Below are positions 3,050-63,981 of a stretch of DNA of 64,000 bases, in pieces (the first letter of the stretch is position 1; the number at the start of each line of letters is the position of its first letter). The notes below the pieces were generated by a model. That model searched no databases and was not told the DNA's origin. It saw only the letters and a program-made list of their open reading frames with translations. Both the position numbers and the translations under genes were made by a program. Source of the DNA: Stegostoma tigrinum (taxonomy: Eukaryota); NCBI RefSeq assembly GCF_030684315.1, contig NC_081372.1, positions 28,535,481-28,599,480 on the forward strand, written 5' to 3'.

Positions 3050-5954
3050 AATGTTTGTGAGTGCAAGTAGGAAAATAGTAACTTTTAAGCTTGTGGAAGA
3101 CCTCAGCTAAACTGAGAAGCAACACTGGAGAATCCCTTCAGAATAAGGGGTATGAGAAGCAACTGGTTCAATTGCCATTGATTGTCTTAAAAGGCTGGGC
3201 CTAAGCTTGAAAGCCTAAGCTTGATGCAGAGAAATTGGTTGAGAAATGTTCAACTTGATTGGTTCAATATTTTTCGATTAGAAAATGGCTGCCTGAGTGA
3301 AGTCCTAATTAAATACTCGGAGATTTTTCAGGAAGGTCTAGGGACTATTGAAGGAGCCAAGCCCACCTTACCTGTTGACCAGGAAGAAATTCCATGATTC
3401 TGCAAGGCCTGCTCAGTGCCATTTGTCTTATGGGGCAAAAGTAGAGGCAGAAATTAACAGACTGGGATGCTGCTTGGCCTGCTGTGTTCATCCAGCTCTA
3501 CAACTTGTTATCTCACATTCTCAGTATCTACAGTTCCTACTATCTCTAAATCATCAGAACAGTCCAATTTGCAGAACGGGTAGCACCGGGGTGTACTGAT
3601 TGTGAAACCCAATGGGTTGGCTCACCATTGTGGGGATTTGAAACAAACAACAAACTGCTTTTTGTAACTGGATAAATACCCAGTCCCTTGTATAGAAGAC
3701 ATACACAAAGCTGGCAGTGAGGCTGTCCTTCAAAAAGTTGGACATAAGTCATGCATACCTGCAATTGTAGTTAGATAAGGATTCCAAAAAGTACGCTTCA
3801 GTTAATACGCATAACGGTTTGTACCAATATATGAGACTGCCATTTGGAGTATCATCTGCCTGTGCTATTTTTCAGCAGATAATGGAGAAAATTGTACAGT
3901 ATCTACCCCAGGATACCATTTATCTGGATGATCTGCTATTAAATGTCAAGACCAATGAAGCGCATTTAGAGAACTTGGAAATGCGCTTAAATGTATCTCC
4001 AAGGCAGGTGTATGCTTTCGAAGGGGAAAATGTGTGATCCGGACACCACAAATGAGGCCAAGTTGCAACTACGGATGCCTTGAGTTGCCTCCCACTGGCA
4101 GATACATTACTAGAGTCTGTTCTGTCTTTAAACTTTCTGGGCACCCTTCTGGTAAATGCTGGCAATATCAGATAAAAACTGCAAGAACTGCAGATGCTAT
4201 AAATTAGAAACAAATGTAGACTTTGCTGGAAAAGCTCAGAACTGTTCTGAGGAAGGGTCACTAGACCCAAAACATTCACTCTGATTTCTTGTCACAGATG
4301 CTGCCAGACCTGCTGAGCTTTTTCAACAATTTCTACATTTGTTGCTGACAATATCAGATTGAGGACACAAAAAGATCTGGCCCTGGCATAACTAAAACAG
4401 TTGGTGACGATGGAAGAAATGAAAGGGCCATCACAACCAGAAGTGAAGCCTTTCTGGACCCGGCCAGAAATTGCCATACAGATCGGCATTTTATTATGGT
4501 TAGCAAAGTCAAGCAAAGATTACTGGCTGAACTCCACCAGGGTCATTCAGGATGCCCAAAATGAAGATGTTAGCGAGAATTTATGTCTGACAACTAGGAT
4601 AGGATGCAGACATAACTGCATTGTTGGGGCAGCACCCAGAGTGCCAACCAAGACAGAAATTACCACCAGCAGCTCCCCCAAATTCAGGGTATGGCTGGGT
4701 AAACCCTGGGCTCAGTTACACATCGATTATGCCAGCCCTTCATAGGTTGAACATTCTTAGTCATTATGGATGCTCACTCAAAATGGTTGGATGTGCATAG
4801 AGTTAATTTGTCAAACACAGAGATGACAATACAAAAGCTGTGAGAATCTTTTGCAATATGTAGGCTCCTGGAAGTATTTATCACAGACAGCAGGCCATCA
4901 TTTACCAGCAGGGAATTTGAGTATTTCCTAAAGTCAAATGGCATTCAGCACAGAAAGACAGCTCCATACCATCCATCATCCAATGGTCTGGTGGAAAGAG
5001 CAGTCCAAACTTTGAAGGCAGCTTAAAAGAACAGTCTACAGCCTCACTCAATACCAAACTGTTACGATTCCTATTTTATTATCAGACCTCCCCTCATCTA
5101 ACTACAAGGATAGATCCAGCACAGTTGCTAATGGGGAGAAGACTTTACACTAGGTTAAACCTGATCTTCTTGGGACCTGGTAGGTAGAGTGAAATGGCTT
5201 CAGAAATGCCAATGCCAGATACAAGACTCATCTAATTGAGGTGACAGTTCACTTCAGGAGGCAAAGTTTGGTGCCAAAATCATGGAAATGATTCTGCATG
5301 GGTAAGAGGCAATGTTAACATGATGTCAGGTCCCATGACTTACAAAGTTTGGACAGGTGAGGCAATTCTGAATAAGTGTTTGGGCCAAACAAAAGCTGCA
5401 AACCTGCAAAATGGGGCAGGGACAAAACATACCCGGCCTCTCAGAACAGCTGGAAAGGCTATCAGAACCTATGGGTTGTCCCCCTCTGTCTAGTGTCGAG
5501 GAAACATCAGAGTCTGAGAGGAACACAACAGATGTTACAGCCTCGACAACTTTCCTACCTGAAGAAGAGGATGAATACTTTCTGAGATGCTCCAGGCTCA
5601 AGAGGTGGGCTACAGTCTGGTACATGCTGCTTGGATTCAGGCTGAGTTGGAAGAACAGGATCTGGTGAAAAAATGCCTGAGAAGAGGCCACAATAAAAAG
5701 AATAGGCCTATGTTCCCAGACTTAAAGGGTAATGCGGTCAGCCATATGGACCTCATAGAATATGAGATCCCTGATTGTTCCAGGTTAACAGCCTCAATCA
5801 GAGAGCCCTGGCTGACAGATATATACAAGAGTGTCAGAGGTTCTGTTCACTCCGAGAGTTGGCTCTGAGGAAGCTGGACCACTATCAACTAATATGCACA
5901 TGTAAATAAAGGGTGAATTTGTGATGGGATACCAGCCTCTGTGGAGTTATTTGA
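3050..5954 (+). mobile_element. Degenerate Ty3/Gypsy LTR retrotransposon (RT, integrase, probable 3' LTR ~5729-5954)
   Basis: RT: YQYMRLPFGVSSACAIFQ...YLDDLL. Integrase: PWAQLHIDYA and TAPYHPSSNGLVERAVQTLK (~4960-5020). Putative LTR with TATA-like (~5820) and AATAAA (5905). Many stops and frameshifts; no 5' LTR seen. Confidence 0.88.
4174..4342. mobile_element. Family B Penelope-type hairpin nested in Gypsy pol
   Basis: Similar to 35045-35246; TSD tgctg(g/a)caatatcagat at 4157-4173 and 4343-4359. Confidence 0.8.
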
Positions 5955-6050: not shown

Positions 6051-7056
6051 CATAGAACATAGAACATAGAACATAGAACAGTACAGCACAGAACAGGCCC
6101 TTCAGCCCACAATGTTGTGCCGACCATTGATCCTCATGGATGCACCCTCAAATTTCTGTGACCATATGCATGTCCAGCAGTCTCTTAAATGACCCCAATG
6201 ACCTTGCTTCCACAACTGCTGCTGGCAACGCATTCCATGCTCTCACAACTCTCTGCGTAAAGAACCTGCCTCTGACATCCCCTCTATACTTTCCACCAAC
6301 CAGCTTAAAACTATGACCCCTCGTGCTAGCCATTTCTGCCCTGGGAAATAGTCTCTGGCTATCGACTCTATCTATGCCTCTCATTATCTTGTATACCTCA
6401 ATTAGGTCCCCTCTCCTCCTCCTTTTCTCCAATGAAAAGAGACCGAGCTCAGTCAACCTCTCTTCATAAGATAAGCCCTCCAGTCCAGGCAGCATCCTGG
6501 TAAACCTCCTCTGAACCCTCTCCAAAGCATCCACATCTTTCCTATAATAGGGCGCCCAGAACTGGACGCAGTATTCCAAGTGCGGTCTAACCAAAGTTTT
6601 ATAGAGCTGCAACAAGATCTCACGACTCTTAAACTCAATCCCCCTGTTAATGAAAGCCAAAACACCATATGCTTTCTTAACAACCCTGTCCACTTGGGTG
6701 GCCATTTTAAGGGATCTATGTATCTGCACACCAAGATCCCTCTGTTCCTCCACGCTGCCAAGAATCCTATCCTTAATCCTGTACTCAGCTTTCAAATTCG
6801 ACCTTCCAAAATGCATCACCTCGCATTTATCCAGGTTGAACTCCATCTGCCACCTCTCAGCCCATCTCTGCATCCTGTCAATGTCCCGCTGCAGCCTACA
6901 ACAGCCCTCTACACTGTCAACGACACCTCCGACCTTTGTGTCGTCTGCAAACTTGCTGACCCATCCTTCAATTCCCTCGTCCAAGTCATTAATAAAAATT
7001 ACAAACAGTAGAGGCCCAAGGACAGAGCCCTGTGGAACCCCACTCACCACTGACTT
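6051..7056 (-). mobile_element. Young 5'-truncated CR1 LINE (RT C-terminus, ORF 6148..7080)
   Basis: SGVPQGSVLGPLLF, KFADD, LVRPHLEYCVQFW; (TTCTATG)n tail at 6051-6080; TSD cttccatag at 6047-6055 and 7074-7082. Confidence 0.96.
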
Positions 7057-8364
7057 TCTAATCAACCCATTGACTTCCATAGTTTAGACTAAAGGCCAGC
7101 TTTTCAGCATTTAAGAAGAATAAATCTCCTTTCCTAATCACTAAAGCTTTGTTTTCTTTTCAAAAATAATCTGACTTCCTGTGATCAGCACGTGGATCAG
7201 AGCCCACATTAAACTATTGACCTCATTTTCCCCTGAACCACATTAGTTTCCTTCATGTCTTAGTTATAAAGTGGACTTTTTAATGCAGAAAGTGTCCTTA
7301 CATTTCAATACCACCAGTTATTCACATAGTCCATACGCACATTTTCCAACACGTCTCCACAGTTGGAAAATGAAATCTTATTTCAAAATGCATTTGATTA
7401 TGTTGTAGACATGAAAATATGTACAGTGTAAAACACAAAATACTAGGTTTACATTCTTGATCCTTACTCACTTATTATAGCATATTTTTCTAATCAACCC
7501 ATTGAGAGATATTACTACACACCTTTGAAGCAAGGGATTTGAATGTGCACCATCCTACTCAGAGATAGGGAAACTATCACTACACCAAAAGAACCCTTCA
7601 TTTATTCACTCATCATACAAAGCTATGCATTTTTTTATCACATTCTTAATCTCCAAATGTTCCTAATATTATTTTATTCTTGATCATACATCAACAATGA
7701 TCTAATGTTTTCTAGCAATATGAGCCATCTTTGTAAGCTGAATTAGCAAACTCACATAAAACTAAAGTGTTGATTTGCAAACATTTCCACAAAAAGACAA
7801 GATATTATAACATATCATTGTGGTTGTGATAACTATAAACTTAGAAATTCCTAAAGCCAGTAACAATCCCTGCATTTCCTTTTCTAATGTAGAATATTTC
7901 TTTTGATGCTAATTTTATTTCTTAGAGAAGGTAGTAGGGTATTTTACTAAGTTTATTTATCTTCTTGTAATGAGGCTGCACGTATCCCCGAGTAACCAGC
8001 ATCGCTACCACTTTAAAAGGTTTATTGAAATGAGGGGAGCATCAGCATCGGTTTATTTGCTATAATTGTCTTCAGTTTCTCAATAGATGCTTGGCATTCT
8101 TTTGACCGTAGTATTTTTGCCTGCTAATATAAGTCTCAGAGGGAAGCAGCTACTTTGCTGAAATTTGGCACAAATGTTCAATAGAAGCCATAACATCTTG
8201 AAAAATCTCATGATTTTCTATTAAGGCATGGAGAAATCTATGAAGTTTTTATGGTCACTGTTCCCTGGCAACACTTATCCTTATCATACAATGTGTCCCA
8301 CGCAAGTTACATGTGTTTTTATGACAAACTCTTGGCAAGATTTAACACTGTATCAGCTAACTGT

Positions 8365-11005: not shown

Positions 11006-12480
11006 ACAAAACGATTCCGGTACATGTGTTACATGCCTGTGCTAAGCCCCTTTCAATAAGGATGATATAGAGGCAGTACCAGAAGTTCTGGAAGCTGTCT
11101 TCTGTTACATTGGCACCGTCTATATTATGGAATTGTCTGATCTTTTCTTTATCATGAGTTCATAGTCAGTCTTTAGCTCCCTTTTTTAACTTCTCGCTTA
11201 ATGTCGTCTTTTATTAATTATAGTGCAACTGTAAACAAAAGTGCTATACAATGTTAAATTTGTCAACTTTGTAAAATATCATTTGCTGCAATGGGGAATA
11301 TGATTTAAATAAACATTTCACCTTTTTAAAATTCCTCAAGGTCAGCTAGTGATTTAGCCTTTGGAATTAGGGTGTATTTCACGCCCCATTTCTTAGTAGA
11401 AGAAATTAAATAAAATGATTTGCATGTAACTCATCATGGAAAAGCTTTAAATCACTTCACAAATCAATTAGTTTTGCAATGCAGTGAACACTATGGAATC
11501 AAACTTAAATTATAACATGTTTATGTTGGACAGACATTAGTAGTGATGAAGGCAATTATCAATTTTTTTTAAAACTAAGAGTCCTCTTGCATCAAATTCC
11601 ATTGGAGTTTTGAGTGTCCTCTTAGAAGAAACATGGAAAATTTAGTTTATAAACTCAGTAAGGAACTATGAATATAATATGCTAGCTTTTATTCCAAGGT
11701 ATTTGGAATTGAATAGAATAACAGAGCCTTTCTACAATTGTACAGTTTTTCGTAAGACTGCAAATAAACTACATTGCAGAGTGTTAGTTCCTTAAAGAAG
11801 GATATACTTACATTTAAGCCAGTGTGATGTGTATTCACGAGATTGATCTTTGAGTTGAGATGGTTCTCCTATTATGAGGTGTAAAGTAGAATCTTCCGGT
11901 ACTCATGGGTGCTTAGAAGAATGATAGGTGATGGTCATTGGAACATGTATGATTTTTATGGACTCGACATTGTGAGATTGTTTGCATTTCACTTGTAAAG
12001 TGTTTAAGATAGTTGGACCTAAAATTTCATAGAACCATAGATTGCTACAACAGAGGTTGAGGCCATTTGAACCATCCTGCCTGTATTGGCTCGTTAGTTC
12101 CACTTGTGTCGTCTTCCCCGTAGCCCTGGAAATGCAGTTCTTGGAACTTGCAGGATTTTCATGAAAATAATTTTGGTTATATTTGCCTTTTACATGCAAG
12201 GAGAAGAGTTATTGTAATTTTATATTAATGATTGCATTATAATTTTGCCTTAAATTACACATCATCAAATTCACTATAAGGTTTTGTTTTATACTTTTCT
12301 CAATTTAAATTGGAATTTCCCAAAAATCAACCAACCAGTTTCCAAACTGAAATTCCACACTAAAACCAAATGGATTATGAAAGAATCAGTATAAACCCTC
12401 ACTAATTTGAGCACTCGATAATCCTTTAACATGATGTCCTTCAGTATTTTTTAAAAAGTCAAAACTAAAGAACTGATTGA

Positions 12481-12696
12481 GAGATAGTAGGAACTGCCAA
12501 TTCTGGAGAATCTGAGATAACAAGATGTAGAGCTGGATGAGCACAGCGGGACAGGCAGCGTCTGGGGAGCGGGAAGGCTGATGTTTCGGGTCTGTGCCCT
12601 TCTTCAGAAGGGAGCCCCAGACCCGAAGCATCGGGTTTCCTGCTCCTCGGGTGCTGCTTGGCCTGTTGTGTTCATCCGTCTCTACACCTTGTTATC
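12481..12696. mobile_element. Palindromic Penelope-repeat derivative (family A hairpin), A-to-G hypermutated
   Basis: Inverted arms centred near 12605; 15-bp TSD aaactaaagaactga at 12462-12476 and 12699-12713. Confidence 0.85.
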
Positions 12697-13067
12697 ACAA
12701 ACTAAAGAACTGAGTTCTGTCCTGGGAAAACTGGCCATGAACAGTGAGCTGTGGAGGGCTTCCAAGTTCTGATTGCCTGCCTCTTTTCTGTGGTTGTATC
12801 TTTGTCTGGTATCCTTGGAAAGGGAGCACACAGTAACCTCAGAGCTGTAAGGCCATTATCTCGTCCCCACCTCCCATCACGCACAAACACCACTTCGATT
12901 TATTCCCTTGCTTTTTGATTTTTGTTACCCCGGAGGGCTATGTTTTTAGTTTGTTCACTGTGTGATTGGTTAATTTGGTGGTGGATTTCTTTGTCAAATA
13001 AAAAAGAACTGGTTTCTTCCTAGTGGGATCTGCAAAGGGGAAGGCCCAGAGGGAAAGTCAGAAACTG

Positions 13068-13396
13068 ATAATGAGAGGCATAGATAGAGTTGATAGCCAG
13101 AGACTATTTCCCAGGGCATAAAAGGCTAACACGAGGGGTCATAGTTTTAAGCTGGTTGGAGGAAAGTATAGAGGGGATGTCAGAGGCGGGTTCTTTACAC
13201 AGAGAGTTGTGAGAGCATGGAATGCGTTGCCAGCAGCAGTTGTGGAAGCAAGGTCATTGGGGACATTTAAGAGACTGCTGGACATGCATATGGTCACAGA
13301 AATTTGAGGGTGCATACATGAGGATCAATGGTCGGCACAACATCGTGGGCTGAAGGGCCTGTTCTGTGCTGTACTGTTCTATGTTCTATGTTCTAT
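13068..13396 (+). mobile_element. CR1 3' fragment, same young subfamily
   Basis: Matches the reverse complement of 6051-6390; (TTCTATG)n tail. Confidence 0.9.
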
Positions 13397-25952: not shown

Positions 25953-37048
<11,096 letters not shown>

Positions 37049-48510: not shown

Positions 48511-49068
48511 TTCTCAATCCCAACTTGATAAAGTTCATAATTTTCAAGCTGAAACTCTTATTCTGGGACTGTCATCTTTTCCTATAAGCTAAATCTAACT
48601 GTATATTTTTCCAAACCACTAAAAAAGCCCAACCATGCTTGACCTGCTATGTTCATCCAGCTCTACACCTTGTTATCTCAGATTCTCCAGCATCTGCAGT
48701 TCTTCCTATCTCTGAACGAATTTCAACCCCATGCTCCTTTCTTCCTGCCCAACTTGATTTCCTAAAACTAAGCCCAGGATTGCCTCTCTTTCACTTGGGA
48801 TTTGCCACACCCTGACAAAGTTCTCCTGAATGTTAAATAAGAATTCTGCACCTCTCTACCATTCACATTGCTTTTATTCTGGTTAATGTTAAGACAGCAA
48901 TTGAAATCATCTTGTATTACTCTTTTTGTTTCTGCACTTTTTAGCAATTTGTCTAATTGAAATAGTTACTATTAACCATTGAAAAACTGAATTGGTTTTG
49001 TTTTGAGATAATAAAATGTGAGGCTGGATGAACACAGCAGGCCAACCAGCATCTCAGGAGCACAAAAG

Positions 49069-49102
49069 CTGACGTTTCGGGCCTAGACCCTTCATCAGAG
49101 AG
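49069..49102 (-). ncRNA. Minimal hammerhead ribozyme motif (intact copy)
   Basis: Reverse complement reads ctctCTGATGAagggtctaggcccGAAACGTCag. Confidence 0.75.
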
Positions 49103-49322
49103 GGGGATGGGGAGAGGGAACTGGAATAAATAGGGAGAGAGGGGGAGGCGGACCGAAGATGGAGAGTAAAGAAGATAGGTGGAGAGAGTATAGGTGGGGA
49201 GGTAGGGAGGGAATAGGTCAGTCCAGGGAAGACGGACAAGTCAAGGAGGTGGGATGAGGTTAGTAGGTAGATGGGGGTACGGCTTGGGGTGGGAGGAAGG
49301 GATGGGTGAGAGGAAAAACTGG

Positions 49323-50534
49323 TTAGGGAGGCAGAGACAGGTTGGACTGGTATTGGGATGCAGTGGGTGGGGGGGAAGAGCTGGGCTGGTTGTGTGGTGC
49401 AGTGGGGGGAGGGGGCGAACTGGGCTGGTTGAGGGATGCAGTAGGGGAAGGGGAGATTTTGAAACTGGTGAAGTCCACATTGATACCATTAGGCTGCAGG
49501 GTTCCCAGGCGGAATATGAGTTGCTGTTCCTGCAACCTTCGGGTGGCATCATTGTGGCAGTGCAGGAGGCCCATGATGGACATGTCATCTAGAGAATAGG
49601 AGGGGGAGTGGAAATGGTTTGCGACTGGGAGGTGCAGTTGTTTTTTGCGAACTGAGCGGAGGTGTTCTGCAAAGCGGTCCCCAAGCCTCCGCTTGGTTTC
49701 CCCAATGTAGAGGAAGCCGCACCGAGTACAGTGGATGCAGTATACCACATTGGCAGATGTGCAGGTGAACCTCTGCTTAATGTGGAATGTCATCTTGGGG
49801 CCTGGGATAGGGGTGAGGGAGAAGGTGTGGGGGCAAGTGTAGCATTTCCTGCGGTTGCAGGGGAAGGTGCCGGGTGTGGTGGGGTTGGAGGGCAGTGTGG
49901 AGCGAACAAGGGAGTCACGGAGAGAGTGGTCTCTCCGGAAAGCAGACAGGGGTGGGGATGGAAAAATGTCTTGGGTGGTGGGGTCGGATTGTAAATGGCG
50001 AAAGTGTCGGAGGATGATGCGTTGTATCCGGAGGTTGGCAGGTTGGTGTGTGAGAACGAGGGGGATCCTCTTAGGGCGGTTATGGCGGTGGCGGGGTGTG
50101 AGAGAAGTGTTGCGGGAAATACGGGAGACGCGGTCAAGGGCGTTCTCGATCACTGTGGGGGGAAAGTTGCGGTCCTTAAAGAACTTGGACATCTGGGATG
50201 TGCGGGAGTGGAATGTCTTATCGTGGGAGCAGATGCGGCGGAGGCGGAGGAATTGGGAATAGGGAATGGAATTTTTGCAGGAGGGTGGGTGGGAGGAGGT
50301 GTATTCTAGGTAGCTGTGGGAGTCAGTGGGCTTGAAATGGACATCAGTTACAATCTGGTTGCCTGAGATGGAGACTGAGAGGTCCAGGAAGGTGAGGGAC
50401 GTGCTGGAGATGGCCCAGGTGAACTGAAGGTTGGGGTGGAAGGTGTTGGTGAAGTGGATGAACTGTTCAAGCTCCTCTGGGGAGCAAGAGGCGGCGCCGA
50501 TACAGTCATCAATGTACCGGAGGAAGAGGTGGGG
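49323..50534 (-). CDS. Penelope-like polyprotein fragment: RT C-terminus (FLRYIDD) + GIY-YIG endonuclease
   Basis: YIDD at 50516-50505 is in frame, with no stops, with ORF 49323..50192, which contains CNRRKCYTC and NVVYCIHCTRCGFLYIGETKRRLGDRFAEH. Confidence 0.9.
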   Translation of the reverse strand, partial: PHLFLRYIDDCIGAASCSPEELEQFIHFTNTFHPNLQFTWAISSTSLTFLDLSVSISGNQIVTDVHFKPTDSHSYLEYTSSHPPSCKNSIPYSQFLRLRRICSHDKTFHSRTSQMSKFFKDRNFPPTVIENALDRVSRISRNTSLTPRHRHNRPKRIPLVLTHQPANLRIQRIILRHFRHLQSDPTTQDIFPSPPLSAFRRDHSLRDSLVRSTLPSNPTTPGTFPCNRRKCYTCPHTFSLTPIPGPKMTFHIKQRFTCTSANVVYCIHCTRCGFLYIGETKRRLGDRFAEHLRSVRKKQLHLPVANHFHSPSYSLDDMSIMGLLHCHNDATRRLQEQQLIFRLGTLQPNGINVDFTSFKISPSPTASLNQPSSPPPPTAPHNQPSSSPPPTASQYQSNLSLPP

Positions 50535-53292: not shown

Positions 53293-53846
53293 TCACAACT
53301 CATATTCCGCCTGGGAACCCTGCAGCCATATGGTATCAATGTGGACTTCACCAGTTTCAAAATCTCCCCTTCCCCCACTGCATCCCTAAACCAGCCCAGT
53401 TCATCCCCTCCCCCCACTGCACCACACAACCAGCCCAGCTCTTCCCCCCCACCCACTGCATCCCAAAACCAGTCCAACCTGTCTCTGCCTCCCTAACCGG
53501 TTCTTCCTCTCACCCATCCCTTCCTCCCACCCCCAGCCGCACCCCCAGCTACCTACTAACCTCATCCCACCTCCTTGACCTGTCCGTCTTCCCTGGACTG
53601 ACCTATCCCCTCCCTACCTCCCCACCTACACCCTCTCCACCTATCTTCTTTGCTCTCCATCTTCGGTCCGCCTCCCCCTCTCTCCCTATTTATTCCAGTT
53701 CCCTCCCCCCATCCCCCTCTCTGATGAAGGGTCTAGGCCCGAAACGTCAGCTTTTGTGCTCCTGGGATGCTGCTTGGCCTGCTGTGTTCATCCAGCCTCA
53801 CATTTTATTATCTTGGAGTCTCCAGCATCTGCAGTTCCCATTATCT
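53293..53846 (+). mobile_element. Penelope-like element 3' fragment (end of GIY-YIG + terminal repeat)
   Basis: QLIFRLGTLQPYGINVDF matches the C-terminus of ORF 49323..50192; near-identical to the reverse complement of 49006-49520. Confidence 0.9.
53717..53750 (+). ncRNA. Minimal type I hammerhead ribozyme motif in Penelope terminal repeat
   Basis: ctct-CTGATGA-a-gggt ctag gccc-GAAAC-GTC-ag: catalytic core, stem II, palindromic ACGU stem III and GUC cleavage triplet. Confidence 0.75.
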
Positions 53847-61417: not shown

Positions 61418-62854
61418 CTTAAAAAGACCCAGAAGCCTGACTTTCAATTTGAATTCAGCTTTTAACCAATTTATGGCAATGTTTCAAAATTATTGCTTCT
61501 AATCCATGAGAAGACTCATCTGCATGTATTATAAAGATGCCTGAAAGCTGTCCCGCCATGATGCCAGGAAAATATAGCAAAAATATAGCAATGTATACTT
61601 TTAACCGAATGCAGCTTAATTTTTATAAAACAGACATTATTGATAAGTGTCAAATTCAAGACCCCTCATTTATACCATATACCCACTTATTTAACTTACT
61701 CTGTGCCCCGACTACTTATGGTGTCTCTTCTGAAGGACAAAGAAGCTCCTCCCTGTTGATCTGATACCTTTATAGAAATGCAGTTTTAATATTTAATTCT
61801 TAAGCATTTGTTTCTAAAAAATACCAAAAAAAATCAAAATTGATTTTTTCTGTCTTGATGAACTTATTCTGATAACTTGGTTGCCCAAGTCTTTTTCCTC
61901 AACTTTGTGCTGCTAGTCTTGCTTTGATCTTGTATGTTCCACGATGGCATACCTTTTTTTTCCATGCATATCCATCTATGTGATAGGACTGGTTGTATCT
62001 GGCATCTCTGTGTATACTCCCAGTTCTCTCCAGCTTTATTTATCCAGTTTCTTTATTCAAGAATATTTTATCTTTTCTTCAAGTTTGTTCATCGCCTCTA
62101 AGATGCCCAAATCACATGGTCTTCTGCTCAAGTTGGTATTCCTGATTTGTACTGTGCTTTTTTTATCTTTGTTAAACTGTGCCCTGTCTCTCATTTTCTG
62201 ACTGTTATTGTCTAATCTTTCTCTTCTATTATTTGAATTTGTTTCAATAGTTTTTGGACTCTTTCTAAGCACATGCTCATTCCCAGAGCTTACATTGAAG
62301 TTTCCAGCATTCCACCTTTGTACTTCATGTTCTCAATCCATGGACCTAGCCTTATCCTTGACATTCATCCATTTTATTTTTTCCAGTGGCTTTTCCTATT
62401 TACCAACTGAAATGTCAATCAATTTCGGCCTGAGCAATTCTGGGATTCCCTCACTTGTTGTAAATCCCAAAATCTCTTCATTTTTCAATTTTCAGTCATG
62501 TTTCTGTCATCATTTCTATCAGTTACAGTTCTCTTTTTATAGTGAACCTGCAACTTTTAACTAGGTGGACTTGTCAATTAGTTAACATTGTGTCCTCCAT
62601 TTTCTGTCATTTTGCCTATTGCGTGCTTTGTGCTACGAATGCTGCTGGACAGGAATTCTTCCTTTGGAATTTTCTATCAGTGCTTCTGATATTTCTTTGA
62701 CTCATGTGTGCCGATAAACATATTTGACTCCTGTTAAAATGAGAAATCTGCACTTATCTGATATTTTGGCATGGTCCAAGAACTTAAATGCCATCACAGG
62801 TTGGTGAATTTCCAAATGAAATTACTGCAGTCTTGCGTGCAATCTATTGAATTA

Positions 62855-63981
62855 CATAGAACATAGAACAGTACAGCACAGAACAGGCCCTTCAGCCCAC
62901 GATGTTGTGCCGATCATTGATCCTCATGTATGCACCCTCAAATTTCTGTGACCATATGCATGTCCAGCAGTCTCTTAAATGACCCCAATGACCTTGCTTC
63001 CACAACTGCTGCAGGCAACGCATTCCATGCTCTCACAACTCTCTGTGTAAAGAACCCGCATCTGACATCCCCTCTATACTTTCTTCCAACCAGCTTAAAA
63101 CAATGACCCCTCGTGTTAGCCATTTCTGCCCTGGGAAATAGTCTCTGGCTATCAACTCTATCTATGCCTCTCATTATCTTGTATACCTCAATTAGGTCCC
63201 CTCTCCTCCTCCTTTTCTCCAATGAAAAGAGTCCGAGCTCAGTCAACCTCTCTTCATAAGATAAGCCCTCCAGTCCAGGCAGCATCCTGGTAAACCTCCT
63301 CTGAACCCTCTCCAAAGCATCCACATCTTTCCTATAATAGGGCGACCAGAACTGGACGCAGTGTTCCAAGTGCGGTCTAACCAAAGTTTTATAGAGCTGC
63401 AACAAGATCTCATGACTCTTAAACTCAATCCCCCTGTTAATGAAAGCCAAAACACCATATGCTTTCTTAACAACCCTGTCCACTTGAGCGGCCATTTTAA
63501 GGGATCTATGTATCTGCACACCAAGATCCCTCTGTTCCTCCACACTGCCAAGAATCCTATCCTTAATCCTGTACTCAGCTTTCAAATTTGACCTTCCAAA
63601 ATGCATCACCTCGCATTTATCCAGGTTGAACTCCATCTGCCACCTCTCAGCCCATCTCTGCATCCTGTCAATGTCCCACTGCAGCCTACAACAGCCCTCT
63701 ATACTGTCAACGACACCTCCAACCTTTGTGTCGTCTGCAAACTTGCTGACCCATCCTTCAATTCCCTCATCCAAGTCATTAATAAAAATTACAAACAGTA
63801 GAGGCCCAAGGACAGAGCCCTGTGGAACTCCACTCACCACTGACTTCCAGGCAGAATATTTTCCTTCTACTAGCACTCGCTGTCTTCTGTTGGCCAGCCA
63901 ATTCTGTATCCAGACAGCTAAGTTCCCCTGTATCCCATTCTTCCTGACCTTCTGAATGAGCCTACCATGGGGAACCTTATC
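62855..63981 (-). mobile_element. Young 5'-truncated CR1 LINE, same subfamily (ORF 62938..63876)
   Basis: Near-identical to 6051-7056; TSD aattacat at 62850-62857 and 63982-63989. Confidence 0.96.

Follow-up and report, generated by a model that had tools for sequence, protein, structure and literature searches.

A Penelope-like hairpin element lying in intergenic DNA of the 3.2-Gb genome of Stegostoma tigrinum carries a cluster of A-to-G changes that is confined to one strand, extends over both arms of the hairpin and leaves its unpaired tail untouched; judging from the sequence, these changes very probably owe their origin to ADAR. ADAR hyper-edits long double-stranded RNA and inosine is copied as G, and A-to-I editing is usually treated as a change of RNA only. 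Our searches of the genome also reveal a class of edited copies, some of them alignable to unedited donors, which suggests that A-to-I editing has likely been made heritable at dozens of loci; this, in turn, would imply that ADAR acts on germline RNA later used by reverse transcriptases.

Within the window, by which we mean the whole 64,000-nt stretch of DNA that was analysed, the original prediction had placed a hairpin flanked by a target-site duplication, and its layout and coordinates proved right: the two copies of the duplication match exactly, and 12516-12594 pairs with 12618-12696 (Table 1). On the + strand the order is tail, antisense long arm, private centre and sense short arm. The element is assigned to subfamily T2, of which T1 is a closely related sister subfamily; positions prefixed S denote places in the 126-nt sense repeat end.

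Table 1. Coordinates, in the window, of the edited hairpin, its parts and the copy used for comparison
Feature	Position	Strand	Remarks
Stegostoma tigrinum hairpin element	12480-12698		inverted pair, Penelope-like pseudo-LTR ends, 34-nt tail, 15-nt target-site duplication
Target-site duplication, left copy, 15 nt	12462-12476	+	exact match to 12699-12713
Target-site duplication, right copy, 15 nt	12699-12713	+	
Pseudo-LTR tail, 34 nt, unpaired	12480-12513	-	11 A on the + strand
Long pseudo-LTR arm (antisense on the + strand)	12514-12605	-	
Centre junction/loop, private to this element	12595-12617	.	
Short pseudo-LTR arm (sense on the + strand)	12618-12698	+	
Sister hairpin, unedited, comparison copy	32804-33015	.	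tail on the right on the + strand; 2 G·T and 3 A·C pairs

For Penelope-like elements, the passages of PMC8557442 available to us report insertions made of inverted truncated copies that carry a tail of 30-40 bp, the tail being described in PMC11167929 too, and the present inverted, 5'-truncated pair, with its 34-nt tail at one end, answers to that description. The T1 repeat lies directly downstream of open reading frames with weak reverse transcriptase and GIY-YIG matches (a finding for T1 only, the present copy being T2): GIY-YIG at E=7.5e-4 and RVT_1 at E=0.01 fall in two different frames, both under the Pfam cut-offs, and a further T1-linked GIY-YIG match has E=0.043. A hammerhead-like core, CTGA(A/T)GA followed by a short stem and GAAAC, can be made out by eye, and an Rfam scan returned no hammerhead match at E<=1, only weak miRNA-like hairpin matches; minimal hammerheads are described in Penelope-like elements in the consulted part of PMC6155905. 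The inverted 5'-truncated copies, the 30-40 bp tail and the frame with reverse transcriptase and C-terminal GIY-YIG in related loci are shared with elements of the Penelope/Poseidon clade, as a putative minimal hammerhead-like motif would be, whereas ADAR-type hypermutation or re-copied edited hairpins are not described in those portions of the two texts on this clade that we had at hand (PMC8557442, PMC11167929).

For the count of changes, 112 unselected arms of the same subfamily supplied the majority sequence, and family-polymorphic sites were masked. By this measure, nine of the 40 non-polymorphic A on the + strand read G, five of them in the long arm (12541, 12548, 12560, 12565, 12571) and four in the short arm (12628, within the GAAAC motif, 12633, 12651 and 12678), while T-to-C changes on the same strand number 0 of 40. 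Four further G fall at sites that are polymorphic in the family: 12554 and 12576 add to the long-arm changes, 12596 possibly does so too, and 12594 stands opposite a C in the partner arm and is therefore a source variant. The T-to-G difference at 12649, which faces T at 12563, is probably an A-to-G change on a T-A variant. The outer long arm (12514-12540) is free of edits, as are all 11 A of the tail, in agreement with the unedited tail that had been reported. The total of about 12 A-to-G changes given by the original prediction thus agrees with our best count of 12, although its split into eight left and four right becomes seven and five, with 12596 uncertain; likewise, the stated lack of T-to-C changes holds against the family majority but not against the sister copy, from which six such differences appear in collinear alignment and two in the other orientation.

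A consensus-free view of the hairpin leads to the same picture, for its 79 stem pairs comprise 62 Watson-Crick, 13 G·T, 1 A·C and 3 other pairs, and 12 of the 13 G·T pairs are best read as A-to-G changes. The other 52 unselected hairpins hold G·T and A·C pairs in a symmetric ratio of 105:105 (the original prediction had held that neutral decay should be strand-symmetric and CpG-driven), and the present element ranks as the most skewed of the 53. With the caveat that the locus had been pre-picked from many windows and the P values are uncorrected, a background of 3.2% per site gives P=4e-6 for at least nine changes in 40, conditioning on the 19 substitutions of the element gives P=9e-5, and the 13:1 ratio of G·T to A·C gives P=0.002.

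Ordinary members of the family do not behave in this manner. About 210 pseudo-LTR arms and 37 hairpins were collected from 944 kb of unselected sequence, where neither a family-wide strand bias (59/2129 vs 39/1879, P=0.18) nor overdispersion among arms was found; outside the window, 880 kb of sequence held 201 arms, none with seven or more such changes, which means that the edited class is rare. Of the seven changes in one arm of a hairpin from the random sample (L124, 3455-3669), five are of the edited type (P=0.0014), and this hairpin is perhaps lightly edited. In 144 hairpins, most long arms terminate at S122-126 and most short arms at S86-99, and the centre junctions of the 87 measurable ones come in 32 lengths and are mostly unique, so that the single junction shared across copies that a unit-moving hairpin element should display is not seen. 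The proposal that these hairpins move as RNA units consequently finds no support as a general rule. For ordinary hairpins we infer that a new inverted pair is built at each insertion, which fits the variety of junction lengths, and re-copying as RNA is limited to some hairpins. The idea that the two arms derive from unrelated templates was weakened, since arms of one hairpin agree at variant sites more than shuffled partners do (16% vs 33% discordant).

To gather the class, the edited left arm served as a query and returned two arms with seven changes, and these, together with the strongest new arm, seeded further rounds. Defined as arms with at least nine changes, and with duplicate loci (L271, L287, L294) removed, the class comprises 29 arms at 26 loci with 447 A-to-G against 5 T-to-C changes on the edited strand, a ratio that both the threshold and the searches favour. 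Two sets of data stand further from the selection: 15 head-to-head partner arms, themselves unselected, show 64/209 A-to-G against 14/395 T-to-C on the same strand, and 19 arms with an exact edited 21-mer (21 genomic occurrences, against 0 for the control) show 131/320 A-to-G and 5/142 T-to-C outside the search pattern. Editing in the class is seen on both tail-first and tail-last strands, and searches with a sense-arm query found no heavily edited sense-only copies.

The neighbour preference of ADAR, depletion of a 5' G (a signature described in the available portion of PMC2873906), is present in part. Pooled antisense arms were changed at 60/199 sites with 5' G vs 355/509 with other neighbours, and the depletion persists outside the search pattern (25/85 vs 99/206, P=0.004); it is absent in the partner arms (19/59) and in nine pattern-only loci (10/39 vs 25/85), and the present copy shows no significant difference either (3/13 changed vs 9/25 unchanged A). 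The site profile is biased, because the class was gathered by similarity to edited queries, and its sites are non-independent. The recurrent sites are S20-22, 27, 43/45 and 72 in sense arms and S49-65 and 82-87 in antisense arms. All four non-polymorphic edits in the sense arm of the present copy (S22, 27, 45, 72) recur in class partner arms; its edited sites do not coincide significantly with the hottest sites of the class (P=0.25, P=0.10), and S66-91 is unedited here though hot in the class (P ~0.04). Decay of editing-made CpG to TG (4/61 and 6/88) is suggestive for dating but confounded by selection.

Several members of the class deserve individual mention. The strongest arm, at L282 (1486-1608), has 28 of 36 sites changed, and arms with 24/36 and 18/31 A-to-G lie at L291 (1481-1605) and L252 (1455-1580), respectively; neither of the latter two has an inverted partner in the surrounding 3 kb and L252 has a short duplication-like flank, so that they look like partial copies of edited RNA. 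At L277, L272, L281, L283 and L279 the G-rich changes seem to extend past the arm into the element body beside the pseudo-LTR, suggesting longer edited duplexes. Inverted double edited arms with a 40-76 nt spacer occur at L290/L350 and L351, 83 kb apart on one contig, and at L280; L290 and L351 have 435 bp in common and differ in their edits.

Evidence for an RNA route comes from donor-copy pairs. L354 and L254, which have the same hairpin junction, share at 95% identity a 3064-bp unit whose start lies in GC-rich, promoter-like DNA and whose end falls exactly on a LINE-type tandem tail; the donor L354 is unedited, and the copy L254 has A-to-G changes at 28/64 sites in the hairpin vs 6/678 elsewhere. 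In the second pair, a 1624-bp unit shared by donor L240 and copy L088 ends at the pseudo-LTR tail, and 12 of the 14 A-to-G changes of L088 lie in two antisense arms able to pair with the tail-end arm (12/67 vs 2/335 elsewhere); L088 has a 9-10 nt duplication-like flank, and its last ~50 nt differ, as after a template switch. Moreover, L271 and L273 have a 1540-bp unit in common with differing edit patterns, and at L290 one junction occurs twice, in inverted orientation, together with a short flank that is also found at another locus. The changes are thus limited to double-stranded parts, being absent from the tail of the present copy and concentrated in the hairpin in both pairs, and a copy that is faithful except for edits in its paired part fits ADAR action followed by reverse transcription, with ADAR as the enzyme that would be responsible. 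Misincorporation by reverse transcriptase under low dATP was rejected for the class since within a 3-kb copy the changes stop where the hairpin does, and GC-biased conversion was rejected on the absence of T-to-C. No donor was found for the present element: a search with its loop pattern and both flanks returned only itself, the degenerate centre-junction pattern having this element as its sole match in the genome. Most target-site duplications were read by eye, as an automatic finder succeeded at three of 12 loci and missed the present one.

We next weigh causes that would require no RNA step, which taken jointly we regard as unlikely. Hairpin-induced sequencing or assembly error is very improbable, for the same bases recur in three runs and two samples: runs X1 and X2, which represent two samples of a single study, each provide a contig that spans 12518-13050 and agrees with the assembly at every base, and a contig of run X3 matches 12586-12645 exactly, so that the call for a check of the raw bases has been answered in favour of the assembly, with the qualification that the check uses assembled contigs of one study with an unrecorded platform, that sample S1 may be the source of the assembly itself and that the other edited loci are read from the assembly. 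More perfect hairpins, such as the sister copy and donor L354, are moreover unchanged. That the G alleles merely mark an ordinary subfamily is just as hard to credit and has been largely refuted by sequence comparison; while the G at 12554, 12576, 12594 and 12596 are family variants at 17-35%, the nine others have frequencies of 1-6% in unselected copies, T is kept opposite them in the other arm even though the arms of one hairpin usually agree at variants, and the best other genomic copy of the element is only 84% identical. Quite unlikely, too, is a chance tail of ordinary substitutions or a single error-prone repair tract. It would suit the light change of this element relative to the class and its non-significant neighbour preference, and some 37 hairpins in 944 kb correspond to more than 100,000 genome-wide, among which a few with P near 1e-4 are expected; against it stand the existence of a real edited class with the same pattern, which raises the prior, other types of change at their normal level (10 vs ~10 expected), the symmetry of the flank differences to organism B, a related species, the lack of a 3' A next to changed A (0/13 vs 8/25 for unchanged A) and the absence of enrichment for the WA motif preferred by polymerase eta (5/13 vs 9/25).

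The timing of the editing is a separate matter. We are inclined to think, with some reserve, that the element was edited at or before its insertion and copied by reverse transcriptase as it inserted. The class supplies same-strand partner changes, 5'-G depletion and unedited donors with copies changed only in their paired parts; for the present element, an older hairpin elsewhere would have been read through by host or element transcription and then edited, whereupon the Penelope enzyme would have begun where the short sense arm ends and reverse-transcribed the two edited arms; at the other target end, priming would have taken place at the tail of an unedited RNA, and the cDNAs would have annealed to each other. 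Such a second, unedited priming at the tail would explain why the ends are exact, why a duplication is present and why edits are missing from the tail, the outer left arm and S66-91. Plain two-end priming on an edited sense RNA, in turn, predicts T-to-C in one arm, which is not seen, and the template must hence have held both arms on one strand. According to the accessible text of PMC11167929, the Penelope protein of an anole nicks both strands of the target and extends each, with starts at two sites bracketing the tail, and the enzyme initiates inside the pseudo-LTR. The original proposal of a hairpin transcribed, edited and then retrotransposed is accordingly sustained by the class and the donor pairs as regards ADAR-type editing copied into DNA, but editing before insertion is only putative at this locus, where the donor search brought up no source and organism B has the right end of the element and no matching edited core.

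It is indeed organism B that lends some weight to a different sequence of events, namely that the hairpin inserted unedited and that its + transcript was edited by ADAR and reverse-transcribed, the cDNA then overwriting the core (12541-12678) by gene conversion or RNA-templated repair; we consider such write-back in place possible but doubtful. In organism B, whose flanks are ~95% identical to those of the present genome with symmetric differences, a contig starting from 12680 carries the final 17 nt of the element and continues into the right flank known from the window (two runs, two studies), which suggests that the insertion predates the split. Had the edits been made at insertion, the core should assemble in B, as it does here, as a long near-identical piece, and none was found: no contig of at least 69 nt (X7) or above 85 nt (X11) at >=88% crosses the core, and no match at >=85% covers 12586-12645 in X5 and X7, blanks that can be false; the core was judged by contig matching rather than by its letters. 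Either the edits were made later in place, or B lost the centre. Write-back would also suit the single central tract of edits with original ends and duplication intact, and the single-copy flanks with no donor found; a + strand gene that we take, on sequence likeness, to be MYT1-like ends ~51 kb upstream, and the polarity of read-through would fit. The Penelope enzyme may furthermore nick its own pseudo-LTR, as the accessible text of PMC11167929 suggests. Opposed to this, each before-and-after pair in hand is a copy at a new site and in no case an in-place change, the left-flank contig of organism B departs from the window at 12432 and continues with ~1.8 kb of other sequence, meaning that the larger part of the element may be gone or rearranged in B, and the locus is intergenic with putative transcription. 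Organism C yielded one 86% piece at the core, not attributable to this locus.

Edited RNA returns to DNA via reverse transcription in A-to-G hypermutated retroviral proviruses and in retroprocessed edited organellar mRNAs, and in plant mitochondria and kinetoplasts retroprocessing can replace a gene in place; these cases differ from a germline nuclear ADAR class in being cell-culture infections or C-to-U and U-insertion editing. Hyper-editing of inverted repeats in RNA, as presented in the available passages of PMC2873906 and PMC5625713, has in common with the present class the dense A-to-G changes in both arms on one strand, the palindromes and the 5'-G depletion, but is normally transient in RNA whereas here it is fixed in the genome; an excess of A-to-G clusters in cDNA traces and not in DNA traces of human and Xenopus is also given there (PMC2873906). 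Fossils of APOBEC action on retroelements in vertebrate genomes share the strand-biased clusters of one type found by donor-copy alignment and differ in that they are G-to-A changes by cytidine deamination of cDNA rather than A-to-G in RNA-paired parts, as far as the portions of PMC4866542 and PMC2873906 at hand go. In the parts available, ADAR1 is stated to restrict L1 without editing it (PMC5224506), and a review of editing and retrotransposons presents no case of an ADAR-edited fixed retrocopy (PMC5974252); nor did literature searches, over main texts that were chiefly open-access, bring up any nuclear genome in which ADAR-edited retrocopies are described as fixed.

The class would thus parallel, for ADAR, the fossil record already known for APOBEC, and any genome rich in Penelope-like hairpins can be scanned for edited copies. 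Fossil copies keep editing patterns of single molecules, and the edits can be used to trace how Penelope elements insert, a poorly understood process with two-end priming, template switches and flank carry-over. Should the doubtful in-place reading be true, there would exist, beside a genome-wide record of edited retrocopies, a way for edited transcripts in the vertebrate germline to overwrite, after insertion, the genomic hairpins that gave rise to them, and the locus would become a test of the old question of whether edited RNA rewrites its own nuclear locus. As to consequences for the element, the change of GAAAC to GAAGC that had been assigned to the ribozyme core is real and lies at 12628, although the arm already lacked the upstream half of the core; the motif shows A-to-G changes in 15 of 20 partner arms, among which this copy and two duplicate pairs are counted, and any change of its three A is found in 9 of 255 unselected arms. 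Editing could therefore conceivably blunt the element via this motif.

The remainder of the window holds further repeats and genes. A first coding exon of a PCMT-domain (PCMTD-like) gene lies at 25953-26357 (+), its start also being put at 26027; in the flanking stretches the MYT1-like gene lies to the left and peroxidasin-like exons to the right, all on the + strand. Broken frames at 3771-5500 resemble a Ty3/Gypsy-type pol. Young LINE-type 3' fragments at 6059-7083, 13067-13396 and 62854-63687 are mutually 96-99% identical, one of them with an open RT-like frame of 311 aa. The sister hairpin is bracketed by a 194-nt direct repeat of 100% identity (31717-31910 and 33466-33659), a recent duplication or an assembly issue; a 518-nt inverted repeat, 96% complementary and 3.8 kb apart (49006-49523 and 53296-53813), looks like a longer Penelope-like insertion with inverted ends, and at 35066-35260 a second, more distant hairpin family displays the same layout.
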